Assembly (NCBI GenBank): GCA_964521085.1
Contig: CAZFPL010000002.1
Location: forward strand, 85,579 to 149,578
Direction: 5' to 3'
DNA length: 64,000 nucleotides
From: an uncultured Anaerolineales bacterium
GTDB lineage: Bacteria > Chloroflexota > Anaerolineae > Anaerolineales > RBG-16-64-43
Shown: positions 36,072 through 62,516 of the stretch, one piece after another
How positions within the stretch are numbered: position 1 is the stretch's first letter
How the letters are laid out: each line of letters begins with the position of its first letter
Notes under the pieces: generated by a model
Seen by the model: the letters and a program-made list of their open reading frames with translations, nothing else
Told to the model about the DNA's origin: nothing
The model's database searches: none
Program-made: the position numbers and the translations under genes

Positions 36072-37245
36072 GGCTGCCTGCGGTGAAATCCAGAATTTGC
36101 TTAACGCGGTTCCGCCAGGTGCAGGACCGGACGTCCGCCCGAGCCCGGGCGGCGATCCGCTTTCTGCGGTCCGCATTCTTGCGGATTTTCGCAAGAGCAT
36201 CCGCCCACGCAACGGGATTGTCGGGCGGAAGCAGGATGCTGTTGTTTTCATTAAGCATCACTCGCAGCGCGGGAAGATCGCTGGAAAAGATAACCCGTCC
36301 GGCTGCCATGTATTCATACAGCTTCATCGGGCTCATGATCTCAGCGGTGTTGCCCCTGCCTCGGATCGTCACTTCCCGCTGATACGGCATGAGCAGGACA
36401 TCGCATGCCGCCTGGTAAAGCGGGATTTCGGCATTCGGGATATGTCCCTGCCAATGCATGTTCTGCGATGCCGCTGTCCGCGCCTTCCAAACCTCAACCT
36501 CTTCGGGATATCCCCCCAGCATGAGAAAACCCACCGCGGGAAACCGCTGCGCCAACTCACAAATGAGTTCCACACCCCGGCCGGCCACCAGGCTGCCGAA
36601 GTATCCCGCGGTGAATCGTCCGGCCGGCAGTTTCAAACGCGTGCGCGCGCGGCTCGGTGCGGGGAGGTTGCGATATTGATCCCCGTCCACCGCGTCGGGC
36701 ACGACGAGAAGATCGCGACTGCGGAGCGCGGGATACGCCCGGCGAAGTTTTTCTTCCAGCGCGCGGCTGATGACCGCCAGTTGGAGGTTGCGCCTTCCAA
36801 GAATCTGCCGGAAATATAACGGGCCGATCCGGCCGGTGGGCTCGTGATGCACCTCGAGCAGGACGGGAAACCCGTGCTGCGCGACCGCCCAGGCAATATC
36901 GATTCCGCGCGTATAGACCAGATCCGGGACGATACGCGCGGCTTCGTCCGCTTCGGCCCATGCCAACCCGCGGCGTCCCAAGAGCGGAAGCAATTTGACG
37001 CGATGGATGGGAAAAGAGACGGTCAGGCCATATTGCCGGATTACATCCTTGGGGAGAGGGATGCCGCCGGTGACCGGCGCGGGAAGTTTTACGCCGGCCT
37101 CATCCGATTGTGCTTCCTCCGCGGGCGGAAGGATCAAATGAACCACATGGCCTTCCTGGGCGAAAGCCTGGCACATCTTCATCACCTGGAGGCTGTTGGC
37201 GGATGCGGAGGGCACGGTGGCGGAACTTAGATAGGCAATCCTCAT
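36064..37245 (-). CDS. GT4 family glycosyltransferase
   Basis: 393 aa. The MRIAYLSS N-terminus and SPMKLYEYMAAGRVIFSSD motif. ATGA overlap upstream and an 8-nt overlap downstream. Confidence 0.85.
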   Translation of the reverse strand: MRIAYLSSATVPSASANSLQVMKMCQAFAQEGHVVHLILPPAEEAQSDEAGVKLPAPVTGGIPLPKDVIRQYGLTVSFPIHRVKLLPLLGRRGLAWAEADEAARIVPDLVYTRGIDIAWAVAQHGFPVLLEVHHEPTGRIGPLYFRQILGRRNLQLAVISRALEEKLRRAYPALRSRDLLVVPDAVDGDQYRNLPAPSRARTRLKLPAGRFTAGYFGSLVAGRGVELICELAQRFPAVGFLMLGGYPEEVEVWKARTAASQNMHWQGHIPNAEIPLYQAACDVLLMPYQREVTIRGRGNTAEIMSPMKLYEYMAAGRVIFSSDLPALRVMLNENNSILLPPDNPVAWADALAKIRKNADRRKRIAARARADVRSCTWRNRVKQILDFTAGSHG

Positions 37246-39858: not shown

Positions 39859-41523
39859 CTACCGATCGCCGAGCTGCTGCAAGGCCTGGACCAGGGAGGC
39901 CGCCCCGTTCCTAATCTCTCCCCCCCACAGGCGTTCCCGGCGCCGCCGGCGTTCGGCATCCGGGAGCGCGAACGCCCGGAGGACGGCGGCCGGCATCTCT
40001 TCCGGCCTATCCGCCGCTTCGGCCAATCCTTCTTCCACAAGCTCGCGGCCGTAGGCGCGCGTGGTTTTCATCCACACGATCGGGATCCCCGTCAAAGCCG
40101 CTTCGTAGAGTACGGAACTGTACGAACCGACGGCCAGATCCACTTGCGCGAAGGCTTCATAGACGGTGCCGGTTTGCAGCAAGCGGACGCGCGAGGCGGG
40201 AAGCGAATATTCCTCAAGGCTCTTTCCGGATTCGCCGGGGCGGAGTTTCAAGACGAGTTCGAAGCGGGGATCCTCCAGCAGCGTTTGTATAAACGCCGCC
40301 ACCTCGCGCTTTCTCGCCAGCGGTTCAGACACCACCAGGATCCGGATCTTCCCCCGCGGATCAGATTCCTTTTTGTGCCGGTCCAGGGACGGGGGTGAAA
40401 CGTCCGGCGGCCGGAGGGGGCCGGACACGAACACCTGATCCGATGTATAGAGCGCAGTGTCGCGCAGCAAGCGGTCCCGGAAAAGGTCGCTCCATACCCC
40501 GTAGCGGTTGAAGGCGTGGGCGCGTGCGCCGGAAAAGCCGTACGCCATCAGGCCGGCATGGAATTTATTAAACACCCCGTGCTGGAATCCGAGAACCGGG
40601 ATTCCCAAAGAGATGCAGGCGGCGACGAGCTCATGATTGTGCCGGTTGTCGTCGAAGACCACCGCCCGGCGAACGCGTTGGAAACGAAGCGCCCGTTTCA
40701 GCATGCGCTGGCGGGCGACGGACTGCCGGCAGCCTTCCATCACGACCGGAACGAGCGCCCGCAGCGCGCGTTCTTCGAGGACATTCGAGCCCATCGCGGG
40801 CATTTCCACCGCGGGGACGACGATCCTCTCGCCGGAAAGTTGCGCCCAGAAATCCGCGGCTTCAAGAAAAAAAACCGGCCTTCCCCTACGGAAAAAATTT
40901 TTAAGCGCCTGATAGGGCGAAAGGGTGTGGGCGTATTCCGCATACCGGAATCCGCACCGGTCCAATTCGCGGTACAGCGGAGTAAACCGGAAATCCTGAC
41001 GGAGTCCGGGGCTGACATGATCGATAATATACAAAAGCGTATCGCGCGAGGCGATTCGAAAGAGCGCGAGGGAGAAAAACGCAAGAGCCAGAACCGCCCA
41101 CTTTCCAATCGACCCTTTGGGGGGCGGAAGCATGTCCCCTTCCAGGGAAGCGAATCCCATTTTCCCGCTGATCGCCCGCAGCACCCGCTCCAAATCCGGC
41201 GGGGCATTTTCGATGCGTATGCTTTTCATGCCATCGGCGGCTTTAAGAAGGGGAAAAAGCTGGGTCAGCGGGACGAGGTAGAAACGCAACAGCCGGTCCT
41301 GGCCGTACCACCATGGTTCGAAGCCGTCTTCGACCGGGATCGAGGAAATCCGTTTTCCCGATGCATCGGTGAGGGTGTTCATCCTGCGGAGGAGATCCAG
41401 TGCGCGGTCCCAATCCGGGGCGGAGACCGGAATGGACGCGCCCTCCGTCTGCTCGAACTCCCCGTCGGTATCGGGGTTCGGGCGGAAGCGTAGGTGCCGT
41501 GGGATTCCGCCGCCGTCACTCAC
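39859..41523 (-). CDS. Hypothetical 554-aa protein with one TM and a GT-B-like C-terminal half (family not recognised)
   Basis: GTG start, with GGTGAGG 5 nt upstream. Central TM KWAVLALAFFSLALFRIA. The C-terminal region VGSYSSVLYEAALTGIPIVWM resembles the donor-binding end of TagF/KpsS-type enzymes. Confidence 0.6.
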   Translation of the reverse strand: MSDGGGIPRHLRFRPNPDTDGEFEQTEGASIPVSAPDWDRALDLLRRMNTLTDASGKRISSIPVEDGFEPWWYGQDRLLRFYLVPLTQLFPLLKAADGMKSIRIENAPPDLERVLRAISGKMGFASLEGDMLPPPKGSIGKWAVLALAFFSLALFRIASRDTLLYIIDHVSPGLRQDFRFTPLYRELDRCGFRYAEYAHTLSPYQALKNFFRRGRPVFFLEAADFWAQLSGERIVVPAVEMPAMGSNVLEERALRALVPVVMEGCRQSVARQRMLKRALRFQRVRRAVVFDDNRHNHELVAACISLGIPVLGFQHGVFNKFHAGLMAYGFSGARAHAFNRYGVWSDLFRDRLLRDTALYTSDQVFVSGPLRPPDVSPPSLDRHKKESDPRGKIRILVVSEPLARKREVAAFIQTLLEDPRFELVLKLRPGESGKSLEEYSLPASRVRLLQTGTVYEAFAQVDLAVGSYSSVLYEAALTGIPIVWMKTTRAYGRELVEEGLAEAADRPEEMPAAVLRAFALPDAERRRRRERLWGGEIRNGAASLVQALQQLGDR

Positions 41524-41530
41524 GGGAGCC

Positions 41531-42574
41531 TCACCCGCCCGGGGATTGCCGGATGACGCGTTCGAACTCGGCGCCGAACCGCTCGTTTAACTCCTCCACA
41601 TGCAACGCCTCCTCGGGCGAAGTGGGATTGATGCCGTCGTGCAGCACGTAATCCACAAAGTGGTTGATTACATATTCATGCGGCGAAGGCGGGGCGGCGC
41701 GTTTGGGTTTGGGAAGGATGCGGGCGGATGCCCAACGGCGGAACAACTCCGCCGACAGCTTCGCGTTGGGTCGTTCGGCCAACGCGAAGGCGGTTTTATA
41801 GGAAAACATATAGGAAGCCTTGGTGCCGTGCAGCACGTTGATCCGGCGCTTGGTCTCCTCGGGATTGGCCGACATGCGGATGTTGACATAGCCATCCTTG
41901 CTTTCCAGAACCACATCCACTTCGTCGGCGCTCATCCACGGCCATTTGGCGGTGGTCTTGCGCGCCGCCACGCTCAGGAGTCGCATCTCTCCGACCAGCG
42001 CGTAGGCGATGTAGAGTTGATGCGGAAGGCTCTCCGCCCAGCGCCCGCCGGGGATCTTGTGACACCAGAAGTTCGGATCGATCACCATCCGGTCCTGGTC
42101 TCCGTTGGTCATCCAGGTCAATCCGATATGCAGCACGCGGCCCGCCTCGCCGCGTTTGACGATCTCCGTCATGCGCAGGATGCCCGCCATGAATTTATTC
42201 TGATGGACAACCGACAGCTTGCGGCCGGTGCGCTTCTGGGCGGCCACAACCTCGCGCGCTTCGTCGAGGGTGACGGCAAACGGTTTTTCCAGGAGCACAT
42301 CCGCCCCGTGTTCAAAAGCGTAGATCGACAGATCCTTGTGGGTCTGGGGAGGGGTGCAGATCGAAACGATCCGCGCGCCGGTCTCGCGGAGTCCTTCCTC
42401 CAGCGAGGGATACGCCCCGGGAATCCCGTTCTCGTCCGCCACACGGCGTGCCCGTGCCAGATCCGGATCGCACATGCCGACGAGATGCACCGCGGGATGG
42501 TTCTTGAAGAAGGGCAAATGCCGGACAGCGCCGGCAACACCGCTGCCGACGATGAGTACTTTGACCTTTTCCAT
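41531..42574 (-). CDS. Gfo/Idh/MocA family oxidoreductase
   Basis: VLIVGSGVAG Rossmann motif and EKPF motif. I take the start at ATG 42574 (GGAG 5 nt upstream), because the TGGTATAAT promoter lies at 42640-48, inside the longer track ORF. Confidence 0.85.
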   Translation of the reverse strand: MEKVKVLIVGSGVAGAVRHLPFFKNHPAVHLVGMCDPDLARARRVADENGIPGAYPSLEEGLRETGARIVSICTPPQTHKDLSIYAFEHGADVLLEKPFAVTLDEAREVVAAQKRTGRKLSVVHQNKFMAGILRMTEIVKRGEAGRVLHIGLTWMTNGDQDRMVIDPNFWCHKIPGGRWAESLPHQLYIAYALVGEMRLLSVAARKTTAKWPWMSADEVDVVLESKDGYVNIRMSANPEETKRRINVLHGTKASYMFSYKTAFALAERPNAKLSAELFRRWASARILPKPKRAAPPSPHEYVINHFVDYVLHDGINPTSPEEALHVEELNERFGAEFERVIRQSPGG

Positions 42575-42639
42575 TCCGTCTCCGATTTCGGGGCTTTCGC
42601 CCCCGGTTTTTCCAGGGGCATGCGCCACCGGGGTTTGGA

Positions 42640-51592: not shown

Positions 51593-52924
51593 CTACTTCC
51601 GCTCCCGGGACAAGGATGTTCCGGCCGCGGACCCCAGCGGACGGACCTCCGTCTCCCAGGGCAGAATCGGCGCCACCACGCCGGACCAGGCTCGCGGGTA
51701 ATCGCCTTTAACCGACCGGCCGGAACCGCTGTCCTCCACCCGGAAGGAGAGCAGATTCGACTCGCGGATAAAATAACGGCGGGGGACCAGCACGCGCAGC
51801 AACACGTCGACGGTGAACATTCCCTCGTTCAGGAAATCACCTGGGATCTTGCACACGCTGCGGTAGATCCCCTTTTTGCGCGACTTCCCGGTATAGGCCG
51901 AGTCGTGATTGGCGGCGGATTCCAATACGCAAATGCCATCGTCGTTGTGGAGCAGGATGATCGGCATAAACGGCTGCCCTGAATCGAACGCCCAATATTC
52001 CACCTCGATCTGCAACGGCTCGCGGATTTCGAATATCGAGCGCGGCTTGCCGTTGCGGTCGAGCAGGCGGACCCGCTTCAGGCGAGCCGTGGCATCCCCC
52101 GGCGCCTGGTCGGGCGAATCCCATTCTTTGTGGTCGGCGGCCGAGCGGTCGGCGTTCAGATAATGCGAGATGACTTCCGAGGTATCCCCGTCTGCGGAAA
52201 TCCGCCCTTCATCGAGCAGGATAACCCGCTGGCACAGGCGATGGATGGCGGTCATATTGTGGGAGACAAACAGCACCGTGCGGCCTTCTTTGCCGACGCT
52301 CTCCATCTTGCCCATGCATTTCTTCTGGAAGCGGTCGTCGCCCACGGCCAGGACTTCGTCCACCAGCAGGACTTCCGGATTCAGATGCGCCGCGACGGCG
52401 AACGCCAGCCGCAAGAACATCCCGCTGGAATAATGCTTGACGGGCGTGTCGATGAACTTTTCGATCTCGGAGAAGGCGACGATTTCATCGAAGCGCCGTT
52501 CGATCTCGGCATTGCGCATGCCCAGAATCGCACCGTTGAGGAAGATGTTCTCCCGTCCGGTAAGCTCCGGATGGAAGCCGGTTCCGACCTCGAGCAGCGA
52601 CCCGATCCGTCCGGAAAGCCGGACGCGCCCGACGGTCGGATCGGTGATCCGCGAGAGCACTTTCAGCAGCGTGCTTTTCCCCGCGCCATTGCGTCCGATG
52701 ATGCCGAGCACCTCCCCCTGGCGGACCTCGAAATTGATATCCTTCAAAGCCCAGATCATCTGCGCGGCGGGAATGGGCTCGCGCCGGATGATGCGCCGCG
52801 CCAAGCGAAAGGGCATTTTCGCGGCGTCGGCCAGCGTATCCCGGAGGGTTTTATATCCCTCCTGGAGGGCGCCGATGCGGTATTGCTTGCCGAGGTTTTC
52901 CACCCGGATGACGAGGTCGCCCAT
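51593..52924 (-). CDS. wzt: Polysaccharide ABC exporter ATP-binding protein with C-terminal extension (Wzt-type)
   Basis: Walker A GRNGAGKST, signature YSSGM, and Walker B LLVDE. A ~190-aa beta-rich C-terminal domain is consistent with a Wzt_C carbohydrate-binding domain. Confidence 0.85.
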   Translation of the reverse strand: MGDLVIRVENLGKQYRIGALQEGYKTLRDTLADAAKMPFRLARRIIRREPIPAAQMIWALKDINFEVRQGEVLGIIGRNGAGKSTLLKVLSRITDPTVGRVRLSGRIGSLLEVGTGFHPELTGRENIFLNGAILGMRNAEIERRFDEIVAFSEIEKFIDTPVKHYSSGMFLRLAFAVAAHLNPEVLLVDEVLAVGDDRFQKKCMGKMESVGKEGRTVLFVSHNMTAIHRLCQRVILLDEGRISADGDTSEVISHYLNADRSAADHKEWDSPDQAPGDATARLKRVRLLDRNGKPRSIFEIREPLQIEVEYWAFDSGQPFMPIILLHNDDGICVLESAANHDSAYTGKSRKKGIYRSVCKIPGDFLNEGMFTVDVLLRVLVPRRYFIRESNLLSFRVEDSGSGRSVKGDYPRAWSGVVAPILPWETEVRPLGSAAGTSLSRERK

Positions 52925-52925
52925 G

Positions 52926-53777
52926 TCACACCACGTCCGCGAAGTTTCGTTCCATGCGCCGGAAATAAAAGGTGCCGGTGATAAGCAACACCATGGCGAC
53001 GACGGCGGAGACTCCGACCATCAGGCCCGGAGGAGACCCGCTTCCCAGAAGCGCCCAGCGGAACCCGTCGAGTACGCCGGCCATCGGGTTGAGCCCGTAG
53101 ATCGTCCTCCACGGTTCGTCAAGAAGACTACTGGGGTAGACGACTGGGCTGATAAACATCCAGACCTGGAGCAGGAACGGGACCATGTAGCGGATATCCC
53201 GGTACTCCACGTTCAGCGCCGAAAGCCAGAGCCCCACCCCAAGGGCGGTGATGAACGCCAAAAGAAGAAACAACGGCAGCCAGACCACGTTGATCGTGAT
53301 GGTTATACCAAAGGCCAGTACCATCCCGACCAGGACGACAAAGGCGAGTGCGAAATCCACCAATCCCGAAAGCACGCTGGCGATCGGCATCACCAGGCGC
53401 GGGAAGAAGACCTTCTTGATCAATTGCGAATTTCCGACCAGGCTGTCTGAGGATTGGGCCAAGCCGTACGCGAAGAATGCCCAAGGGACGGTTCCGGCGG
53501 CGCTGAACACCTCATAGGGCAGGCCCGCGGTTCCGGAGGAGATTTTCGCCAGCCTTCCGAAGAACAGGCTGAACACGACCATCGTCAGGAAGGGCTGGAG
53601 GATCGCCCACGCCGCGCCGAGCACGGTCTGCTTATAACGGACTTTGATATCCCGCCAGGTAAGGAAAAACAACAGCTCGCGGTACGCCCAGACCTCGCGC
53701 AGCTTAAGGTTCACCCATCCGCGCGAGGGGACGATTTCAGTGACGGGACCGACAAATTCGCTTTGCGATGATTCCAT
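52926..53777 (-). CDS. wzm: Polysaccharide ABC exporter permease (ABC-2 type, Wzm/TagG-like)
   Basis: 283 aa. RDIKVRYKQTVLGAAWAILQP signature and six hydrophobic segments. Confidence 0.85.
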   Translation of the reverse strand: MESSQSEFVGPVTEIVPSRGWVNLKLREVWAYRELLFFLTWRDIKVRYKQTVLGAAWAILQPFLTMVVFSLFFGRLAKISSGTAGLPYEVFSAAGTVPWAFFAYGLAQSSDSLVGNSQLIKKVFFPRLVMPIASVLSGLVDFALAFVVLVGMVLAFGITITINVVWLPLFLLLAFITALGVGLWLSALNVEYRDIRYMVPFLLQVWMFISPVVYPSSLLDEPWRTIYGLNPMAGVLDGFRWALLGSGSPPGLMVGVSAVVAMVLLITGTFYFRRMERNFADVV

Positions 53778-53842: not shown

Positions 53843-54217
53843 CTATGTTCGGGACGCATTCACCTTTCCTTGGACCGTTTTTCTAAAGGATTGCATTTTC
53901 TTGATCAGCGTCACCATTCGGTTTTCCATCTTCTCACTATCTTCGGACAGATATTTTCTTCGTTGAGCAATTCGATGGCAGGCGCTGGATTCTTCGAGCG
54001 ATCGAATCGCGTAACCTAGAAATCGCACCTGCTCCGAGTCGGTCTGTCCCGTGGATCCTTCGGCAATATTAAGTGCAATCGATGTCGCCGCGCGAATCCA
54101 CTGACTTCGCAGATTATATAATTCCTCTTTCGGAAGACATTCGGTCACTCGGTATACATCGTCGAGGTAATCAAGCGCCAGCTTCCACACCTCGAGATTC
54201 TCGAACTTGAAAGCCAT
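53843..54217 (-). CDS. Four-helix-bundle protein (23S rRNA intervening-sequence protein / Avd family)
   Basis: 124 aa. The N-terminal FENLEVWKLALDYLDDVYRVT...LRSQWIRAATSIALNIAEG is the hallmark of this family. GGGGGA SD. The sequence is visibly more A/T-rich than its flanks. Confidence 0.85.
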   Translation of the reverse strand: MAFKFENLEVWKLALDYLDDVYRVTECLPKEELYNLRSQWIRAATSIALNIAEGSTGQTDSEQVRFLGYAIRSLEESSACHRIAQRRKYLSEDSEKMENRMVTLIKKMQSFRKTVQGKVNASRT

Positions 54218-54325: not shown

Positions 54326-54360
54326 ATAGTCCATGGTCTATAGTCCATCGTCTCTATCTT
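54326..54360. repeat. Right arm of the inverted repeat; overlaps the last codons of the HAD gene
   Basis: atagtccatggtctatagtccatcgtctctatctt. It covers the HAD stop codon (54338-40) and the last 7 codons. Confidence 0.8.
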
Positions 54361-54997
54361 CAAGCCAGGATTCCATCTCCGTAAGATCTTTCACCTTAGC
54401 AACAGACAATTTATCGAAGTTCGTCTCCGTCTCGCGGGCCAGGAAACGCGTGCCCGCTTCGCGCGCGGCATCGTAATCGCTCATGCCGTCGCCGACCATC
54501 AGCACTTCCTGCGGGGAAAGCGCGTGCCGCGCCATCACGTCGCGCAGGATGTCCGCCTTCAACCGCGGGGTGCCCCACAATTCCTCGAACCAGGCGCCCA
54601 TTCCGCGTTTGGCGACGATGAGTTCCAACTCCGCCTGCGGGGTTCCCGAACCGACAATCCGCACCACCCGCCCTCTCAATCCGAGAAGCAAATCCTCCGC
54701 GCCCGGCACTTGCGGGCAGCGGAAAATCCGCTCACGGGTGAGGCACTCGAAATCGGCGCTTACCTGCTTGCGGATTTTCTCGGTGTAAGGCAGCCCCAGG
54801 ATGTTGCGCTGAATGTGCTCGAACTTGACGTACCGGGAAATACCGGCCTGGGCAATGTGGTAGTCGCGGATCGCCTGAACCTTCTCCGGGTAATCCGCGT
54901 ACAGTTCCATGAAAGCCTCGGTCTTGATATTGGCGGATTCCAGGATCACGCCGTCGAAATCGAAAACGATTGCGCGCAGGGAATCAATTCGCTTCAA
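54338..54997 (-). CDS. HAD-IA family phosphatase
   Basis: IVFDFDGV (motif I), the VGSGT region, and GDGMSDYDAA (motif IV). The likely start is TTG 54997, with GAGGA 7 nt upstream; the track GTG at 55024 lacks an SD. Confidence 0.75.
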   Translation of the reverse strand: MKRIDSLRAIVFDFDGVILESANIKTEAFMELYADYPEKVQAIRDYHIAQAGISRYVKFEHIQRNILGLPYTEKIRKQVSADFECLTRERIFRCPQVPGAEDLLLGLRGRVVRIVGSGTPQAELELIVAKRGMGAWFEELWGTPRLKADILRDVMARHALSPQEVLMVGDGMSDYDAAREAGTRFLARETETNFDKLSVAKVKDLTEMESWLEDRDDGL

Positions 54998-55046
54998 CGC
55001 AGGTTCCTCTCGAAGATCACGCACCGGAAAGGAAGGCGCGTGAAAT

Positions 55047-55766
55047 CTATAATTTCTTCACGTCCGGATAATGGGCCAGCCACCACTCGGAAAAACCGGC
55101 GTCGAGGTGGGTGTGAATATCCCGGCCGGTTACCCAATTGCGCAGGATCGGCGCCGACCGCTTTCCCATCCACCACCACGGGCTGGGCCCGTCGCGCCGC
55201 TGGACGCATTCTTTTCGGAAGGCCCATACGCCCTGGTCGTAGTAATACGCCGCCGGGTACGACTGGCGTTCGGTCGAGGCCTGGCGGTTGGGGTCTCCAT
55301 ATGGGCGCAGCAACCCATCGACGATCTCAAGCGAGCGCAGCGGGTGGTCGTCGGCCGCCTGCCATACGCTCATGACAGAATCCAGGTCCGGACGGTCATC
55401 GAGCATCCCGAGCGCCCGGTCCAGCAGTTCGCCGTCGAGCATCACGGTGTTCCCCAGGAGGAGAACCACGTTGCGCAAATCCTTTTCGCGCGCGTCGGCG
55501 TATTCCACGGCATGCTTGATCACCTCGCCGTGGTTGATGTGATCGCCGCACAACCCCTCGGGCCGGACGATGATCTCGCAGCCGTTCTCGCGCCCGACCT
55601 GCATAACCTCCGGCGAATCGGTGGAGATGTACGTCTTGGAAATGCGTTTCGCCTCCCGGGCGGCCTGGATCGGGTAGTAGACCAGCGGTTTTCCCGCGAG
55701 ATCCATCACATTCTTATTGAGGATCGATTTGCTTCCGGCGCGGGCGGTGATGATGGCAACGTTCAC
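55047..55766 (-). CDS. NeuA/KdsB-fold cytidylyltransferase (CTP_transf_3 family)
   Basis: VAIITARAGSKSILNKNVMDLAGKPLVYYPI matches the acylneuraminate cytidylyltransferase N-terminus. The likely start is GTG 55766, with AGGAG 6 nt upstream; the track start at 55820 is a TTG. Confidence 0.8.
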   Translation of the reverse strand: MNVAIITARAGSKSILNKNVMDLAGKPLVYYPIQAAREAKRISKTYISTDSPEVMQVGRENGCEIIVRPEGLCGDHINHGEVIKHAVEYADAREKDLRNVVLLLGNTVMLDGELLDRALGMLDDRPDLDSVMSVWQAADDHPLRSLEIVDGLLRPYGDPNRQASTERQSYPAAYYYDQGVWAFRKECVQRRDGPSPWWWMGKRSAPILRNWVTGRDIHTHLDAGFSEWWLAHYPDVKKL

Positions 55767-55859
55767 GGCACTCTCCTGCAGGTTTTTTTCCTGCGAATTC
55801 AACGGGGTAAATTTTATCAAAAGCCGAGCGCTCGCTTCGCGAGGGCAACCGATCGCTCA

Positions 55860-57653
55860 TCAACGCTTAATCGCCCGGGCGCACACCTCGATCGCGAACC
55901 GCTCGTCAAGGGTATCAAGTTCGCGCCGGGAAAACTCCTCCGCCGTCAACCCGCGCATCGCCGCGGCGGCGAGGAGCGAGTTGCCGTAAGCCCGGACCTG
56001 GACATTTTCGCTTCCGAAGGTTCCCCCCACCAGCCCGGCGAATCCCTCAGGGGTGAAGCGCCAGAGCTCATGCCACCAGGGCTCGATCATATCCGTCATC
56101 GGCACCGCCGCCAGAAGCACGCCGCCGGGGCGGAGGATGCGCCGTATCTCTGAGAGAATCGCCGGCAGATCCTTCACGATATGCAGGACGCGCGTGCAGA
56201 TGATGCAGTCGTAATACCCGGAGGGAATGTTGTTGGGCCGGCTCAGGTCGGCGATGATGGTCGCGTGCTTGCTGTGGCCGGACCCTTCCTTGTGCAGAAT
56301 ATCGAGTTTTTGGATGTTCGGCCCGCCGAAGCGAGAAGCGTATTGGTCGTTCTGAAATTCCAGCACCCGGCCGCGCACGTCCGCACGGAATTCCCCGAAG
56401 AAACGGTCGATGTAGTAGCGATGCACGGGCGTGCCGCGTTCGTTTCCGGAAACGACCGAGAGCGGCGATAGTCCATTCCCGAGCCGGAACCGCGCCCAGA
56501 GTGCGGTCAGAATCGGAATGCGCAGCTGCTTTCGGCGAACCTGCCCGGACCGGATATTCTGCCAGCGGTATGCCAGCCACTGGAAAACCCGTTTCGGCAG
56601 CAGCGGCAGGCGATTCCAATCGGTGACCGCTTTGGGATCCTCGCGGATCTTCTTTTCCGCCCCCGCGTATCCCTTCGGAGTGCGGGGAGACCGGACGGAC
56701 TCCATATGCTCCTCGAGCCGGCGTGAAAATTCCCGTCCGCCCGCGTCACCGGGGGTGACGCGCGGAATCCAATACCGGTCGGAGCCGCCGTGGACCGCCG
56801 CTTTGACATTGGCGCAGGCGTAGTTGAACCCCAATTCCCGCGCCAGGCGCAGCGTGACCGTCGTCTCCGATTCGCGGCTGCCGTACGGATAGGACAGCGC
56901 ACGGACCGGCCGCCCGAGCAGCTTTTCCAGCGCGTGTCGGGAATCTGCCATTTCAGTTTTTTGAGAGGTATCTTTCAGTGCGGCCAGCCAGGCGTGGCGC
57001 ACGGTGTGCGCGCCGATCGATATCAAACCGTTGGCTGCCAGCCGGCTGCATTCCCGTGCCGTCAGCGGGCGGACATCGGGGCGCGGTGCCGCCGGGCGGC
57101 ATCGGGCTTCCCTGCAAATTCGATCCATCTCCGCCCGGATTTCATCCGGCGGGAAAGCGCGCAACGCATAATGGAGAATCCCGAAGGCATCCTCCCGCGG
57201 CATGCCCAGATAAAACCGCATCCGCGCATCCTCCGGTAGTCCTTTCCACTCAGCGGGCTCGCGCTTGGATTCCCAGACAATTCGCTGCAATTCATCCCAC
57301 CAGAATTCCTTTTTACCGTCCAGATAACCGGAGGAGATAAAAACGGTTGCGGGGATTTTCCAGCGTTCCAGGGCGGGAAGCGCGCCGAAGAGAACTCCGG
57401 CATAGCCGTCATCGAAGGTCACGGCGACCGATCTGCGCGGAAGGTTTCCCTGCGCCAGACCCCCGACCATTTCGTCCAGGGTCACCGGATTCCAAGAACG
57501 GCGCAACTCCTCCATTTGCGATGCGAACAGCTTCTCCGGCACGCTGACGTGAAGCGGGTCCGGGGATTGGCGGCCGACCTGGTGATAGGCAAGCACTACT
57601 CCGTGGGGGGAAAGGATTTCGGCCAGCCGGTTAATTCTTTCCTTAACGCCCAT
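55860..57653 (-). CDS. Bifunctional polysaccharide deacetylase (CE4/NodB) - SAM methyltransferase fusion
   Basis: 597 aa. The N-terminal half carries VTFDDGY and IGAHTVRH. The C-terminal ~200 aa carries a class I MTase-like core (RVLEF..., DCIICTRVLHIVKD, LRPGGVLL). Confidence 0.75.
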   Translation of the reverse strand: MGVKERINRLAEILSPHGVVLAYHQVGRQSPDPLHVSVPEKLFASQMEELRRSWNPVTLDEMVGGLAQGNLPRRSVAVTFDDGYAGVLFGALPALERWKIPATVFISSGYLDGKKEFWWDELQRIVWESKREPAEWKGLPEDARMRFYLGMPREDAFGILHYALRAFPPDEIRAEMDRICREARCRPAAPRPDVRPLTARECSRLAANGLISIGAHTVRHAWLAALKDTSQKTEMADSRHALEKLLGRPVRALSYPYGSRESETTVTLRLARELGFNYACANVKAAVHGGSDRYWIPRVTPGDAGGREFSRRLEEHMESVRSPRTPKGYAGAEKKIREDPKAVTDWNRLPLLPKRVFQWLAYRWQNIRSGQVRRKQLRIPILTALWARFRLGNGLSPLSVVSGNERGTPVHRYYIDRFFGEFRADVRGRVLEFQNDQYASRFGGPNIQKLDILHKEGSGHSKHATIIADLSRPNNIPSGYYDCIICTRVLHIVKDLPAILSEIRRILRPGGVLLAAVPMTDMIEPWWHELWRFTPEGFAGLVGGTFGSENVQVRAYGNSLLAAAAMRGLTAEEFSRRELDTLDERFAIEVCARAIKR

Positions 57654-57773
57654 CGATCAACCCGCGTCCTTTCCCATTTCGACTTCCCGAAGTGTAAATG
57701 GAGATACACCGATTATCCATGTAGAAGGGGATATACGCCAGTTCACGGGGATCGGCGGGAATTGCGAACGCAA

Positions 57774-57806
57774 GGAGAATCCGGGTGGCTTGCAAGCCCG
57801 GTCTCC
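57774..57806 (-). other. GC-rich imperfect hairpin directly after the SDR stop codon (intercistronic structure or weak terminator)
   Basis: ggaga..ccggg...cccgg-tctcc pairing around a ggcttgcaagcc palindrome. No U-tract follows. Confidence 0.3.
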
Positions 57807-58688
57807 TCACGTTGTATGTTCTTCCCGGGAGATTTGTTCGAGGACCTGGAGAATCCCCTGGCCGAAATCGACATACAAATTCGACGTCAGTTTTCTTCCC
57901 ACCCGCGGGTGGAACTGGTAGGGAGTGATCCGGTAGTGCCCGTCGGGGATTTCCGGCCGGGCGTACTCCACCTGGATCTCGCGGCCGAGGATTTCCGAGA
58001 ACATCGTGAACAAGTCGCGGGCGCGCATCGGGTAGTGGCCGGTGATGATCAGATGCTGGTTGGCGTATTCGGAAGCAAGAATGTCGACGGAGAGGCGGGC
58101 TGCATCGGCCACATGGATGTATTCCCGCGAATCTTCCGGTTCGCCGTAGTAGCGGATCTTCCCGCTTCGCGCGGCTTCGCGCAGAAGGCGGTATAGGCCG
58201 TTGCTCTCATCGGCCCGCGGGCCGTACAGGCTGCCGAATCGCAGGATCGTGTACTCCAGTCCGTACCGGTGCTGGTACTCTTCGATATACGCTTCGCACG
58301 CCTGCTTGCTGGCGCGGTAGAAGGAGCCCTCACTGCTGTACACATAGATGGTGCTGGAAAACACGAAGCGCTTGACCTTGGCGCGCCGGGCGGCTTCGAG
58401 CACGTTGACCGTGCCCTCCACATTGACCTTCACCGTCTCGCGCGGAAGCTCGCGCGCCTTGTTGAGGTCGGAAAGCGCGGCGTAATGGTAGACGTAGTCC
58501 GCGCCTTCGATCGTCCGGCACAACAGATCGAAATCCTCCAGGCTTCCGATCACTTGCTTTTGATCCGCCGGAAGCGCGGCGGCCTTCTTTTGATCGAAGA
58601 TCGTCACGCTATGCCCGCGGCATGCGAGTTCATCCGCCAGATGGCTGCCGAGGAATCCCGCCCCGCCGGTGACGACCGATACCGTCAT
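57807..58688 (-). CDS. NAD-dependent epimerase/dehydratase (SDR)
   Basis: Start at ATG 58688 (MTVSVVTGGAGFLGSHL), forming an ATGA overlap with the upstream stop. YRASKQACE is the YxxxK motif. Confidence 0.85.
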   Translation of the reverse strand: MTVSVVTGGAGFLGSHLADELACRGHSVTIFDQKKAAALPADQKQVIGSLEDFDLLCRTIEGADYVYHYAALSDLNKARELPRETVKVNVEGTVNVLEAARRAKVKRFVFSSTIYVYSSEGSFYRASKQACEAYIEEYQHRYGLEYTILRFGSLYGPRADESNGLYRLLREAARSGKIRYYGEPEDSREYIHVADAARLSVDILASEYANQHLIITGHYPMRARDLFTMFSEILGREIQVEYARPEIPDGHYRITPYQFHPRVGRKLTSNLYVDFGQGILQVLEQISREEHTT

Positions 58689-59620
58689 TTCGCTTTTTCT
58701 TTCTGGAAGAAGTCGATCACTTTCTGCGCCGCTTCCACCTCCATGCCGATCCGGCATTCCAGGGCATACGATCCGATGTGCGCAGTCAGCACGATGTTGT
58801 CCAATTCGGAAAGGGGGCCTTTATACGGTTCGGCGGCAAATACGTCCAGGTACGCACCGCCCAACTTGCCGGAGCGCAGAGCCTCGAGCAGCGCGGTTTC
58901 GTCGACCCATCCGCCGCGCGCTGCATTTACCAAAAGCGCGCCTGGTTTCATCTTCGCAAACTCCGGTGCGCCCAGCAGCGCGGTTTTCGTCGAACCCGAG
59001 AGATGCAAGGAAAATACATCCGCCTGGGGCAGGGCTTCGTCGAGTGAAACGTATCGGACCGCGTGCTGGCTGGCGAACAAATCATCGTGCACCGGATCGA
59101 CCGCCAGAATATGGACCGAAAACGGCTGCATCAGCCGCACCAGCGCCTTGCCGATGCGCCCCAACCCGATGATGGCGACGGTTTTCCCGCGCAGCAGCCT
59201 ACCCATCGGTTTGGAGAATTCCCCGCGGCGGACGGAGGCGTCGGATTGCGGGATGCGCCGCAACAGCGCAAGCAGCCCGCCGAGGGCGAGCTCGGCCACG
59301 CCATTGGTCGGTCCATCGGGCGTGTTGAACACCGATATGCCGCGCTCCTTGGCGTATTCCCGGTCAACGTTGTCGACCGCCGTGCCGACGCGCGAGATGA
59401 CCTTCAGGCGGGGAAGCTGGGAAAGCACCTCGCGGTCAAGCGCCTCGGTGCCGGCGATCAGGCCGTCCGCGTCGCGGAGCAGTTCGACCGTTTCGGGTTT
59501 CGTCAGCTTGCGGCCATGCGGATTGAAGATCAGTTCGAAGCCGGCCAGACGGAGATCGTCGACCGGTTCGCTGCTTTCTTTTCCGAACGAGGACGTGGTG
59601 ATGGCGATTTTTGGGCTCAC
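58685..59620 (-). CDS. D-isomer-specific 2-hydroxyacid dehydrogenase (PGDH-like)
   Basis: GKTVAIIGLGRIGKAL NAD-binding site, NAARGGWVDE motif, and the TAHIGS catalytic-His region. Start is GTG 59620 (GGAG 8 nt upstream) or GTG 59629. Confidence 0.8.
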   Translation of the reverse strand: MSPKIAITTSSFGKESSEPVDDLRLAGFELIFNPHGRKLTKPETVELLRDADGLIAGTEALDREVLSQLPRLKVISRVGTAVDNVDREYAKERGISVFNTPDGPTNGVAELALGGLLALLRRIPQSDASVRRGEFSKPMGRLLRGKTVAIIGLGRIGKALVRLMQPFSVHILAVDPVHDDLFASQHAVRYVSLDEALPQADVFSLHLSGSTKTALLGAPEFAKMKPGALLVNAARGGWVDETALLEALRSGKLGGAYLDVFAAEPYKGPLSELDNIVLTAHIGSYALECRIGMEVEAAQKVIDFFQKEKAK

Positions 59621-59625
59621 GAGGT

Positions 59626-60609
59626 TCACTCCGTGGAAATCTGGCTAGCCCAGGATTGCTCGGCCCGGTACCAATCGACGAGGTTGTGAACGCCGTCTTC
59701 GAGTTTGGTCTGCGGTTCCCAATTCAGGAGTCTTCGGGCTTTGCTGATATCCGCCCAGGTGGCGGGCACGTCCGCCGGATGGGCGGGCTTTTGTTCGATG
59801 ACGGCCTTCTTGCCGGTGAATTCTTCGACCATCGCGATGATGTCGCGGATTTTCGCCGGACGGTCGCCGCCCAGGTTGATTGTCTCGAAGCCGAGCGGTT
59901 TGACAGCGGCAATCGTTCCGCGGGCGATATCGTCGACGTAGGTGAAATCGCGTTCCTGGCTGCCATCCCCGAAAAGCACGATCGGCTTGCCCTCGGAGAT
60001 GCGCTGCACGAAACGGAACATGCTCATATCCGGGCGGCCGGCCGGGCCGAACACCGTGAAGTAGCGAAGCACGGTGACATCCATCCCGTACAGGAAATGC
60101 CAGGTATAGCACATCGCTTCGGCGGCCTTCTTCGAGGCGGCGTACGGGGAAAGCGGTTTGTCGGTGGAGGCATCTTCCTTGAAGGGGCGCGGATTCTCCG
60201 CGCCATACAGGCTCGAGGTGGAGGCGAGGACGAATTTCTTCACCCCGCCCTGGCGGGCCAGCTCAAGGAGGTTCAGCGTTCCGGAGACGTTGGTCTCGAA
60301 ATACACATATGGATTCTCCGTGCTCTGCCTGACTCCGGCGCGCGCCGCCAGGTTGATCACCGCATCGAGCACGTTGCCGTCGTGCTTGTTCCACAGCGTC
60401 TCGACCACCACCCGGTCGGCCAGATCTCCGCGCGAGAAGGCAAACCCTGGAGCAGCCTGCAGTTTCTGCAACCGCCACTGCTTCAGGCGCACGTCGTAGG
60501 CGTTGTTCAGGCTGTCGATTCCCACAACCTGATGGCCTTGCTCCAGGAGCAGCGCGGTGACCCGCGCGCCGATGAACCCGGCCGCACCCGTGACCAGATA
60601 GCGAGCCAT
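59626..60609 (-). CDS. UDP-glucuronate 4-epimerase-like SDR
   Basis: Start at ATG 60609 (MARYLVTGAAGFIGARV). IDSLNNAYDVRLKQWRL is typical of uronate epimerases. YAASKKAAE is the YxxxK motif. The longer track ORF overlaps the upstream gene. Confidence 0.8.
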   Translation of the reverse strand: MARYLVTGAAGFIGARVTALLLEQGHQVVGIDSLNNAYDVRLKQWRLQKLQAAPGFAFSRGDLADRVVVETLWNKHDGNVLDAVINLAARAGVRQSTENPYVYFETNVSGTLNLLELARQGGVKKFVLASTSSLYGAENPRPFKEDASTDKPLSPYAASKKAAEAMCYTWHFLYGMDVTVLRYFTVFGPAGRPDMSMFRFVQRISEGKPIVLFGDGSQERDFTYVDDIARGTIAAVKPLGFETINLGGDRPAKIRDIIAMVEEFTGKKAVIEQKPAHPADVPATWADISKARRLLNWEPQTKLEDGVHNLVDWYRAEQSWASQISTE

Positions 60610-62516
60610 TACAGCCGGACCACTTTCGGGCTTTGCTTGCCGTCCGCACCCAGGGCGTTGCGGGTGTCGACCACCAGCCGGGCGAGTTCGAGGATCCTCT
60701 TCCAATGGTAGACATCGTGGTTGGTGGTAATCACCACGCAATCCGCTTGCTGCACAGCACCTTCCAAATCCGCTACGCTCTTGAGATGGAATGATTCGTG
60801 GCGCACTTCGGGAACGTAGGGGTCGTGGTAATCCACGACGGCGCCCTTCTTCCGAAGCAGGCCGATCACATCCAGGGCGGGCGATTCACGCAGGTCGGAG
60901 ACGTTCGGTTTATACGCCACGCCGAGCACGAGGATCCGGCTGCCGTTGATCGCCTTGCGATGCTTGTTAAGCGCATCCTGGACCTTGCCCACCACATAGC
61001 GGGGCATGTTTGTGTTGATCTCGCTGGCCAGCTCGATGAAGCGGGCGTTGTAATTGACCGCTTTCAGTTTCCAGGAAAGGTACAACGGATCGATGGGGAT
61101 GCAGTGCCCGCCCAGACCGGGGCCGGGGGTGAATTTCATATACCCGAAAGGTTTGGTGGCGGCGGCGTCGATAATCTCCCACACATCGAGTCCGAGGTGA
61201 TCGCACATGATGGCCACTTCGTTGACCAGCCCGATATTCACGGCGCGAAACGTGTTCTCCAAAAGTTTCGACATTTCCGCGGCATCGGCGGAGGAGACCG
61301 GCACCAGCGTCTTGATCGCCCGCCCGTAATAGGCAAGGGCGGTTTCCAGGCATGCCGGCGTGATCCCGCCGATCACCTTGGGGGTATTGACCGTGGTCCA
61401 ATCCTCCCGTCCGGGATCGACCCGTTCCGGGGAAAAGGCCAGGAAAATATCCTTGCCCACTTTCAAACCGCGACTCTCGATTTTCGGGAGCAGGAGTTCG
61501 CGGGTTGTTCCCGGGTAGGTCGTGGACTCGAGTACGATCACCATCCCGGGATGGAGGTACTTGGAAACTTCTTCGGTCACATTGACGATGAAGGAAAGAT
61601 CCGGATCGCCCGTCTTGCGCAGCGGGGTGGGCACGCAGATGGAGAGGGCGTCCAGCGTTTTTACCTGGGAGAAATCGGTGGTGGCATGGAGGGCGCCCTT
61701 GCGGACCAGGGAAGCGACATGGGAGGAAGGGATATCCTCGATATAGGATTTTCCCTTGTTGAGCATCTCGATCTTTCTCGAATCCACATCGATCCCGACC
61801 ACCGAATATCCGGCGCGGCCGAATACATCCACCAGCGGCAAGCCGACATACCCCAGCCCGATCACGCCGACGCGGGCTTTGCCGCTCCGGAACTTTCGGA
61901 TCAGATTCTGGGCTGTCTCCCCGCCCTTGGTTGACATCACATCCTTCTTTGCCATGCCTGCCTTCTCCTTTGCATTCCATCGGTTCTGCAGAAATTGGCC
62001 GCCGAAGCCGGCTGCCGATCCCAACAAAGCCGCGGCTAGAATCTTCCAAAAAAGAAAATTTTCCGTCCGTTTGGCAGAAGCCGGGGCTGATTCGTAGCAG
62101 ACGGCGCCCGACATCGAAGCCTTTTCTTCCAACGCCGCGCACAACGCCTGTGCCCAGGCAAGCGCCCGGTCCGCCGCGCGGTACGGATCAGTATCGCGGA
62201 TGTTCAACCGGAGGACGCCGTCTTCCAGCAACTCCTCCACTTCTGATCCGCGCAAGAAATTGTTGCGGGTTAAATTGTACCCGGAGACGACCGGCCGGGA
62301 GACAGCGGCGGACGCAACCTCCGGCTCCTTCGCGAGCGCCTCCGCCTCGTCGGCGGAGTAGCCCCCCGTGCTTAAAATCCGAATCCCAGCCTGATATTCC
62401 GGCAGCTGGGCGAGCACTGCCAGCAGGGCAAGGATTGCCGAGACCGCACCGACGACCAGCGCCGGCAGGATCCCGTTTCGAATGTCCCATCCTTGGATGG
62501 GCGCTGCATTCTTCAT
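60609..62516 (-). CDS. Nucleotide-sugar 6-dehydrogenase (WbpA/TviB/WecC-like) with an in-frame N-terminal two-TM Wzz/PCP-like domain
   Basis: 635-aa ORF with no internal stop. The C-terminal ~430 aa carries GLGYVGLP, CVPTPL and GGHCIPIDP. The N-terminal ~187 aa has TM1 (ILPALVVGAVSAILALLAVLA), a hydrophilic segment, and TM2 (FLFWKILAAALLGSAAGFGG). An alternative internal start is ATG 61955, with AAGGAG upstream. Confidence 0.8.
   Translation of the reverse strand: MKNAAPIQGWDIRNGILPALVVGAVSAILALLAVLAQLPEYQAGIRILSTGGYSADEAEALAKEPEVASAAVSRPVVSGYNLTRNNFLRGSEVEELLEDGVLRLNIRDTDPYRAADRALAWAQALCAALEEKASMSGAVCYESAPASAKRTENFLFWKILAAALLGSAAGFGGQFLQNRWNAKEKAGMAKKDVMSTKGGETAQNLIRKFRSGKARVGVIGLGYVGLPLVDVFGRAGYSVVGIDVDSRKIEMLNKGKSYIEDIPSSHVASLVRKGALHATTDFSQVKTLDALSICVPTPLRKTGDPDLSFIVNVTEEVSKYLHPGMVIVLESTTYPGTTRELLLPKIESRGLKVGKDIFLAFSPERVDPGREDWTTVNTPKVIGGITPACLETALAYYGRAIKTLVPVSSADAAEMSKLLENTFRAVNIGLVNEVAIMCDHLGLDVWEIIDAAATKPFGYMKFTPGPGLGGHCIPIDPLYLSWKLKAVNYNARFIELASEINTNMPRYVVGKVQDALNKHRKAINGSRILVLGVAYKPNVSDLRESPALDVIGLLRKKGAVVDYHDPYVPEVRHESFHLKSVADLEGAVQQADCVVITTNHDVYHWKRILELARLVVDTRNALGADGKQSPKVVRL

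Follow-up and report, generated by a model that had tools for sequence, protein, structure and literature searches.

To our knowledge, every known sugar activated by cytidine monophosphate (CMP), namely Kdo, Kdn and the sialic, pseudaminic and legionaminic acids, receives its keto-acid function from a condensation dependent on phosphoenolpyruvate (PEP) or pyruvate. Here we describe a 64,000-nt stretch of contig CAZFPL010000002.1 (positions 85,579 to 149,578, hereafter the window) from an uncultured Anaerolineales bacterium (genome G000, 95% complete), which encodes a NeuA/KdsB-fold cytidylyltransferase together with a phosphatase of the HAD-IA subfamily, an extended short-chain dehydrogenase/reductase (SDR1) and a D-isomer-specific 2-hydroxyacid dehydrogenase (HADH). 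We propose that this cassette is a self-contained oxidative route to a CMP-activated 2-keto sugar acid (2-ulosonic acid), running via 6-phosphogluconate, 2-keto-6-phosphogluconate and hex-2-ulosonate. We give this reading, whose substrates and step order we infer, a probability of about 0.5. The product would probably be a small, sialic-acid-like acidic sugar, loaded onto CMP for a cell-surface polysaccharide.

Several described systems share parts of this scheme. In the KdsC–KdsB pair, and in the pairs of Kdn-9-phosphate or Neu5Ac-9-phosphate phosphatase with a CMP-synthetase, a 2-keto sugar acid likewise loses its terminal phosphate to a HAD-superfamily phosphatase before a CTP_transf_3 enzyme makes the CMP ester. 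Unlike the Kdo, Kdn and Neu5Ac routes, however, the cassette has no linked KdsA or NeuB, and its phosphatase is of the HAD-IA rather than the KdsC/YrbI HAD-IIIA type. HADH is proposed to catalyse the reaction of KguD of Pseudomonas and GhrB/TkrA of Escherichia coli, members of the D-2-hydroxyacid dehydrogenase family that convert (6-phospho)gluconate into its 2-keto form and back. These enzymes are catabolic and work in the reductive direction, whereas HADH would oxidise, and it scores 158 bits against a GhrB cut-off of 492. For SDR1 the nearest functional parallel is Azf of Haloferax volcanii, an SDR-type glucose-6-phosphate dehydrogenase that replaces Zwf. Both are SDRs of the ‘epimerase/dehydratase’ type, and the role proposed for SDR1 in Zwf-less genomes rests on context; unlike Azf, SDR1 lies nearer to UDP-hexose 4-epimerases (29.1 bits with the Azf model NF041293, cut-off 400). 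In the O-antigens of Raoultella terrigena and Klebsiella O12, which are exported by Wzm/Wzt, WbbB reportedly adds a β-Kdo cap. The window likewise holds a proposed CMP-ulosonic acid pathway beside an ABC exporter whose Wzt has a C-terminal carbohydrate-binding domain, but the sugar would not be Kdo, no GT99 domain was detected, and the cassette occurs in other phyla without a detected Wzm/Wzt.

A synthase-less precedent is EpaA/EpaB, an Acinetobacter baumannii prophage module for nonulosonic acid 8-epimerisation that acts on an existing pseudaminic acid pathway (PMC12053666). In it, too, two redox enzymes accompany a CTP_transf_3 domain, and the module alters which CMP-ulosonic acid the cell uses. 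The present cassette differs in lacking an aldo-keto reductase (AKR) domain, in having a 2-hydroxyacid dehydrogenase, an extended SDR and a phosphatase, and in persisting in genomes without a NeuB-type synthase. That six-carbon 2-ulosonic acids are found in the surface polysaccharides of bacteria is shown by the E. coli K3 capsule, which carries 4-deoxy-2-hexulosonic acid as a side branch with a very acid-labile linkage (Dengler et al. 1988, cited in PMC10433991; 10.1101/2025.01.29.635457); in these papers the genes for its biosynthesis were still unknown. The CMP-ulosonic acids reported in the SugarBase preprint are all higher-carbon. Literature searches returned no published description of the cassette, which is apparently undescribed.

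The initial annotation of this DNA, made from its letters alone, had placed a HAD phosphatase gene next to that of a NeuA/KdsB-fold cytidylyltransferase, with an SDR and a D-2-hydroxyacid dehydrogenase upstream joined by 4-nt overlaps. Our analysis recovered all four genes at those places on the minus strand, along with one that the annotation had omitted:

58685-59620, minus strand: HADH, a PGDH-like D-isomer 2-hydroxyacid dehydrogenase of 311 aa (PF02826, 171 bits; PF00389, 90 bits)
57807-58688, minus strand: SDR1, an extended short-chain dehydrogenase/epimerase of 294 aa (PF01370, 143 bits)
55860-57653, minus strand: fusion of a CE4 polysaccharide deacetylase (PF01522, 79 bits) and an S-adenosylmethionine-dependent methyltransferase (methyltransferase domains), 597 aa; the gene omitted before
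55047-55766, minus strand: CTP_transf_3 cytidylyltransferase of the NeuA/KdsB fold, 239 aa (PF02348, 68.3 bits against a gathering threshold of 22.6)
54338-55024, minus strand: HAD-IA phosphatase of at most 228 aa (PF00702, 58.9 bits; TIGR01549 HAD-SF-IA, 33.2 against 23.3)

The cytidylyltransferase gene starts with GTG and lies 22 nt upstream of the phosphatase gene; its longest open reading frame would extend to 55820, and the shorter gene was adopted because its relatives are 239 aa long. An ATGA at 58685-58688 is common to the HADH stop and the SDR1 start, which bears out the claimed overlap between these two genes. A second 4-nt overlap, GTGA at 59626-59629, is possible between the SDR gene upstream and that of HADH, for which the likelier start is the GTG at 59620, preceded by GGAG. 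The deacetylase–methyltransferase gene stands between SDR1 and the cytidylyltransferase only here and in one other (L012) of the 80 related loci considered below, and is a recent, lineage-specific insertion outside the conserved cassette.

The cytidylyltransferase is the sole PF02348 gene of its genome. It aligns with solved CMP-Neu5Ac synthetases (6ifd, 9ftb, 1eyr), including the N-terminal R..SK....KN loop and the RQ..P motif, whose functional roles we take to be those of the known enzymes; both elements are kept in 79 members of its clade. Judged by sequence, it is a CMP-ulosonate synthetase. Among NCBIfam models, it falls below the equivalog cut-offs of PseF (89.4 vs 205.7) and KdsB (27-39 vs 155-281), and its matches include no NeuA or LegF model. 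The phosphatase retains intact DxDGV and GDxxxD motifs, with motifs I-IV kept in 68 sequences. It is not of the KdsC/YrbI type (HAD-IIIA, 31.4 against a cut-off of 44.6; no match to TIGR01670), and a search of solved structures at E 1e-5 yielded no relative.

SDR1 has the S/Y/K catalytic motif, and its GxxGxxG and YxxxK motifs are conserved in a 102-row alignment. Among solved structures it comes closest to small UDP-hexose or UDP-HexNAc 4-epimerases, and the GalE cut-off is not reached (TIGR01179, 72.3 vs 262.3); its role would be that of either a hexose-6-phosphate 1-dehydrogenase or a CMP-sugar epimerase. For HADH, the top NCBIfam match is PGDH (TIGR01327), at 230.7 bits against a cut-off of 454, and its Arg/Glu/His catalytic triad aligns with that of solved PGDHs. 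The same genome encodes a better PGDH paralogue (G000:C3:34416-35327, 397.9 bits), and the positions that we take to be the phosphate-binding Arg54 and Arg135 of human PHGDH are a Gly and a deletion in the HADH alignment. HADH is thus not the housekeeping PGDH.

Searches found 865 relatives of the cytidylyltransferase, and the 120 listed show 67-91% identity, an unusually high conservation, and are mostly 239 aa long. We analysed 80 loci from species-representative genomes (61-96% identity to the cytidylyltransferase of the window) in Chloroflexota, Bacteroidota (including cultured Roseivirga and Neolewinella), Acidobacteriota, Myxococcota, Planctomycetota, Bacillota and Tectimicrobiota, scoring partner genes by tblastn and all-against-all clustering. 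An HADH orthologue was present in 69-73 of the 80 loci, SDR1 in 66-68 (64 at ≥50% identity) and the HAD phosphatase in 65. All three lie within 7 kb in 54/80 loci, and in 40 of the 52 that have at least 5 kb on both sides. Two gene orders recur: nucleotide-sugar 6-dehydrogenase (UGD)-(SDR)-HADH-SDR1-cytidylyltransferase-HAD in Chloroflexota and Acidobacteriota, and glycosyltransferase (GT)-cytidylyltransferase-HADH-SDR1-HAD-(Pgl)-GT-c11-c13-GT in Bacteroidota, Myxococcota and others, where Pgl is 6-phosphogluconolactonase and c11 and c13 are protein families of our clustering. Both orders preserve the 4-nt overlap between HADH and SDR1, which recurs in Bacteroidota loci. Since the four genes recur together in at least six phyla and in two orders, their grouping is far beyond chance and the cassette is inherited as a unit; this gene-neighbourhood conservation had been proposed as a check in the initial annotation.

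Two variants bear on function. In one genome, the cytidylyltransferase and phosphatase are fused into a single 491-aa protein (P0121) whose gene adjoins that of HADH. In four loci (L045, L053, L063, L066) a minimal form, HADH-cytidylyltransferase-HAD, lacks SDR1; three genes of this kind can therefore only oxidise, dephosphorylate and activate. On the most economical reading, the starting compound would be a phosphorylated 2-hydroxy acid, which is turned into a 2-keto acid, loses its phosphate and is then linked to CMP as an ester. Cultured strains of Roseivirga, Neolewinella and Roseimaritima carry the cytidylyltransferase, those of Roseivirga with HADH, SDR1 and the phosphatase as well. Among these carriers are R. 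echinicomitans KMM 6058, R. seohaensis SW-152, R. ehrenbergii KMM 6017 and Neolewinella aquimaris DSM 105137.

Some loci show further arrangements around the cytidylyltransferase. A putative Uma2-family endonuclease gene (PF05685) lies between it and the phosphatase in one Chloroflexota group (L030:10677-11279, also L032, L034 and L060). In the Planctomycetes bacterium SM23_32 (L033:4311-6113), a cassette-type cytidylyltransferase forms the C-terminal part of a 600-aa protein, the N-terminal ~350 aa of which have no Pfam match. Genome SMAG_U4708 has three cassette-type paralogues (L037, L044, L046; 66-69% identical to that of the window), each beside an HpcH/HpaI aldolase gene.

A condensing synthase is missing from the cassette and its surroundings. 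The initial annotation had seen none in the 64 kb, and profile searches agree: NeuB, KdsA and HpcH aldolase genes are absent from the window, the only NeuB of the genome being on contig C30 and the only DAHP_synth_1 gene on C24. The latter is a true DAHP synthase (510 bits vs 335; 128 vs 242/314 with KDO8P synthase models), and whole-genome searches found no KdsA or HpcH aldolase in G000. The NeuB-like gene on C30 (261 bits, 287 aa) matches positions 1-277 of the 329-position model and apparently lacks the C-terminal extension of full-length NeuB; it adjoins a gene for a KdsC-family phosphatase, and this cluster has no CMP-transferase gene of its own. The same cluster (L004:7503-19767) also holds genes for a glucose-1-phosphate cytidylyltransferase, CDP-glucose 4,6-dehydratase, RfbH and two acetolactate-synthase-like thiamine-diphosphate enzymes.

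Within the same bacterial family, an orthologue of the cytidylyltransferase (74-96% identity) is found in 18/20 genomes, the two exceptions being 72% and 77% complete. Besides G000, only two of these 18 carriers have a real NeuB; it is absent from the other 16, nine of which are at least 95% complete. Seven same-family genomes have no PF03102 match whatsoever, and the weak matches in the others resemble the DAHP-synthase type of C24, a reading based on a score range and profile span equal to those of the C24 gene of G000, the one gene checked. In genomes of the same order outside the family, NeuB occurs alongside paralogous cytidylyltransferases whose identity does not exceed 39%. Across the 80 loci, a NeuB-like gene lies within 10 kb in 11, and in four of these (L042, L083, L085, L087) a second cytidylyltransferase paralogue, 26-28% identical, stands beside NeuB. 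In a quick maximum-likelihood tree with these NeuB-linked paralogues from the same loci as outgroup, in place of named NeuA, KdsB, PseF or LegF references, 75 cassette cytidylyltransferases form one clade, separated from the four paralogues by a very long branch (~10 substitutions per site, SH-aLRT 100).

The cytidylyltransferase is thus not co-inherited with a PEP-dependent synthase (NeuB, PseI, LegI or KdsA). Of the explanations offered in the initial annotation, that of a synthase encoded elsewhere holds in so far as G000 has the NeuB-like gene on C30, but it leaves the module unexplained, with a real NeuB in just 2/18 same-family carriers. The other, that the dehydrogenase/SDR pair makes some different acidic or keto sugar for the enzyme to activate, is favoured by inheritance of the cassette as a unit, the cytidylyltransferase–phosphatase fusion, the failed PseF and KdsB cut-offs and the separate clade. 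A co-regulated synthase combined with nesting of the enzyme in a characterised clade, which the initial annotation had named as refuting its reading, was not found.

In the route we propose, a hexose-6-phosphate would be oxidised at C1 to 6-phosphogluconolactone and hence 6-phosphogluconate, either by SDR1 acting as an SDR-type sugar-phosphate dehydrogenase (with the lactonase of some cassettes) or by the pentose-phosphate pathway of the cell. HADH would then oxidise C2 to give 2-keto-6-phosphogluconate, the HAD phosphatase would remove the 6-phosphate, and the cytidylyltransferase would link the anomeric C2 hydroxyl to CMP, yielding CMP-hex-2-ulosonate. Finally, a dedicated glycosyltransferase would transfer the residue to the polysaccharide exported by the neighbouring Wzm/Wzt. 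We know of no central metabolite other than 6-phosphogluconate that fits and forms the cyclic hemiketal needed. If SDR1 acts as an epimerase instead, the product would be an epimer of 2-ketogluconate. More tentatively, the donor may be CMP-D-arabino-hex-2-ulosonate (CMP-2-ketogluconate) or an epimer, made from glucose-6-phosphate in four or five steps, a nucleotide sugar not described so far.

The supply of 6-phosphogluconate can be followed in the gene content. A Pgl that exceeds the TIGR01198 cut-off is encoded inside the cassette in eight loci from two phyla and at two positions, after the phosphatase in seven Bacteroidota loci and before the cytidylyltransferase in one Kofleriaceae locus (TIGR01198 scores of 151.9 in L036 and 129.9 in L040 against a cut-off of 124.45; PF01182 score of 200.9 bits in L084). 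Zwf was undetected in all seven of these Bacteroidota genomes, so the lactone must come from some other dehydrogenase, and the cassettes in question encode none without an assigned function except SDR1. The possibility that the cassette Pgl is a dedicated extra copy was ruled out, as no other Pgl exceeds the cut-off in G061-G065, the five genomes checked. More broadly, no Zwf was detected in 32/76 cassette genomes, among them 18 of the 19 Acidobacteriota searched (Thermoanaerobaculia, Multivoradales), seven genomes of Cytophagales type and three Roseivirga isolates. SDR1 is in the cassette of 31 of these 32, the exception being an aldolase-type locus. The scheme predicts SDR1-less cassettes only in Zwf-positive genomes, and all four genomes with such a cassette have Zwf (4/4).

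Of the Zwf-less cassette genomes, 12 of the 13 checked retain Pgl, which suggests that these groups have a glucose-6-phosphate dehydrogenase not yet recognised as such. In the Zwf-less Roseivirga isolates, Pgl lies elsewhere, near a small kinase of the shikimate-kinase family (SKI) that is a possible gluconokinase; 6-phosphogluconate could therefore also come from gluconate. Neither Zwf nor Gnd is encoded inside any of the 80 loci, and no PF01182 gene was found in the genome of the window. That genome carries Zwf and two Gnd genes, so that the precursor is available.

A number of observations weigh against this oxidative route. SDR1 stands closer to UDP-hexose 4-epimerases than to Azf (29 bits, cut-off 400), HADH scores higher with PGDH (231 bits) than with GhrB (158 bits), and the chemistry of all cassette members is deduced from gene content. 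Hex-2-ulosonic acids are seldom reported in glycans, the only precedent we can cite being that of the K3 capsule (PMC10433991; 10.1101/2025.01.29.635457). The cassette Pgl could be merely the housekeeping copy, and the complementarity of Zwf and SDR1 is not significant (Fisher p ~0.11, with a background of ~59%, or 44/76 Zwf-positive genomes); given that p value and the relatedness of the genomes, the pattern is weak. In G000, G002 and G019 there is a NeuB without a cytidylyltransferase of its own, so that the enzyme of the window may serve NeuB too. Relatives of the cytidylyltransferase (66-70% identity) also adjoin HpcH/HpaI aldolase genes in L033, L037, L039, L044, L046 and L047, so that enzymes of the clade may take a 3-deoxy acid as substrate. 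This last observation favours an alternative in which the enzyme activates a 3-deoxy-2-ulosonic acid (2-keto-3-deoxygluconate or larger), with a skeleton from an aldolase or dehydratase encoded elsewhere and with HADH and SDR1 tailoring it or supplying the partner, an aldehyde or keto compound. The HpcH-linked enzymes form a subclade nested within the cassette clade, and L010 has an HpcH-cytidylyltransferase-HADH set beside a cassette-type cytidylyltransferase. We nevertheless consider this explanation unlikely: searches of G000 revealed neither an HpcH aldolase nor KdsA, nor any other obvious condensing enzyme; HpcH occurs in 6/80 loci and in none of the 54 full four-gene loci; the aldolase sets of L039 and L033 have their own second, KdsB-like cytidylyltransferase; and the near-constant presence of HADH suits a core step better than tailoring.

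A further alternative involves the C30 genes. Their NeuB-like synthase and KdsC-like phosphatase would make a nonulosonic or octulosonic acid, which the module would then tailor and re-activate, with HADH and SDR1 as an oxidise-and-reduce epimerase pair. The 261-bit NeuB-like gene indeed stands beside the phosphatase gene without its own cytidylyltransferase in a genome with one PF02348 gene, and EpaA (a CTP_transf_3–aldo-keto-reductase fusion) with EpaB (an SDR) is a comparable synthase-less module (PMC12053666). Yet 16 of 18 same-family carriers have no real NeuB, 4 of 11 NeuB loci have a separate paralogous cytidylyltransferase beside NeuB, and the fold families differ (HADH and an extended SDR against the AKR and classical SDR of EpaA/EpaB). 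Moreover, the HAD phosphatase and Pgl would have no role in a tailoring scheme, which we regard as very unlikely. Much the same doubt applies to activation of a small phospho- or keto-acid that is not a sugar and stems from 3-phosphoglycerate, for instance a derivative of glycerate or hydroxypyruvate, as a polymer substituent or cap. In favour of this, HADH has its nearest relatives among 3-phosphoglycerate dehydrogenases, non-sugar acids are activated by some members of CTP_transf_3 (as with phosphonoformate in phosphinothricin biosynthesis), and the cluster has a Wzt_C-type exporter, a kind that often reads a terminal cap. However, the presumed phosphate-binding arginines of PHGDH are not kept in HADH, three-carbon keto acids are unable to form the cyclic hemiketal that this class of enzyme esterifies, and sialyltransferase-like transferases and Pgl accompany the cassette, making such a group a long shot.

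Turning to the genomic setting of the proposed CMP-ulosonate cassette, a single minus-strand polysaccharide cluster spans the window from 62.5 kb down to ~23 kb. It is transcribed in the order UGD fusion, GalE/dehydratase-like SDR, HADH, SDR1, deacetylase–methyltransferase fusion, cytidylyltransferase, HAD-IA phosphatase, a small gene, wzm and wzt (with a Wzt_C-like tail). Downstream of wzt lie genes for a methyltransferase, a PIG-L deacetylase and WbqC and a long glycosyltransferase series. The neighbours relevant here are:

60609-62516, minus strand: UGD fusion (TIGR03026, 446 bits)
59626-60741, minus strand: second SDR, GalE/dehydratase-like (PF01370, 207 bits)
53843-54217: conserved 124-aa gene between the HAD phosphatase gene and wzm
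52926-53777, minus strand: wzm (PF01061, 79.5 bits)
51593-52924, minus strand: wzt (PF00005, 82 bits) with a Wzt_C domain (28.5 bits, slightly below the cut-off of 30.4)
41531-42628, minus strand: Gfo/Idh/MocA oxidoreductase (PF01408, 96 bits)
39859-41523, minus strand: 554-aa protein without a Pfam or NCBIfam match, with a C-terminal half of the c11 family (hhalign)
36064-37245, minus strand: GT-B glycosyltransferase (Glyco_trans_1_2 and Glycos_transf_1 domains)

The UGD fusion and the second SDR accompany the cassette solely in Chloroflexota and Acidobacteriota. A UGD gene is adjacent in 35/80 loci, and none lies within 10 kb in the Bacteroidota loci. The position of the cassette directly upstream of wzm and wzt (Wzt_C) is shared by Chloroflexota relatives; in Bacteroidota and Myxococcota loci, no Wzm/Wzt-type exporter was detected within 10 kb. 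The exporter next to the cassette provides the setting for the suggestion of the initial annotation that the product may cap the polymer.

Genes for possible users of the CMP-sugar are found beside several cassettes. Upstream of the SDR1-less cassettes of Limnochordia and Clostridia are GT29 sialyltransferase-like genes, three each in L045 (6874-9023) and L063 (6582-8896) and one in L053 (8239-8949), encoding proteins of ~225 aa in tandem (30.6 bits vs 23). A protein-kinase-like gene follows the same SDR1-less cassettes. L039 has a polysialyltransferase-like gene and L010 has MptE/Maf-like genes. In Bacteroidota cassettes, cluster-10 glycosyltransferase genes overlap the start of the cytidylyltransferase gene by 1 or 4 nt in 10 loci. 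The GT-B protein of the window is 30-38% identical to these over its full length, and we infer that it is a candidate user of the CMP-sugar.

Two further genes of the window point to a possible extended module. The Gfo/Idh/MocA oxidoreductase, possibly a member of it, is the top genome-wide match to the corresponding oxidoreductases of 11 cassette loci (118-145 bits, 26-30% identity, ~84-100% of the query), and in L067 such a gene replaces that of HADH. The c11 family accompanies the cassette in 28/80 loci, and the 554-aa protein matches an alignment of 15 c11 proteins with an hhalign probability of 95.9% (E 5.7e-9). The best fold match of a c11 model (pLDDT 84) is NeuC/UDP-GlcNAc 2-epimerase (Z 26.8, rmsd 3.3, 337 residues aligned), with GT-B glycosyltransferases close behind (Z 22-24); from the model, c11 would be either a candidate transferase or a NeuC-like enzyme. 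A better-conserved c11 copy of 409 aa, with a NeuC-like fold, is encoded on another contig of the same genome (G000:C34, L092:8946-11227), beside genes for a NanM-like sugar O-methyltransferase and valyl-tRNA synthetase.

If the oxidative reading is right, C2 oxidation of an ordinary sugar phosphate would be a new route to CMP-sugar donors, providing a six-carbon ‘mini sialic acid’ for surface glycans in at least six phyla without an aldolase-type synthase. It would add a new, probably very acid-labile residue to the known bacterial surface sugars. It would also explain the ‘orphan’ NeuA-like genes that are automatically annotated as CMP-sialic acid synthetases in hundreds of environmental genomes, a label that would wrongly imply that those organisms produce sialic acid. 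In this Anaerolineales family, where the cytidylyltransferase is nearly universal, the glycan is for that reason probably a core component of the cell envelope.

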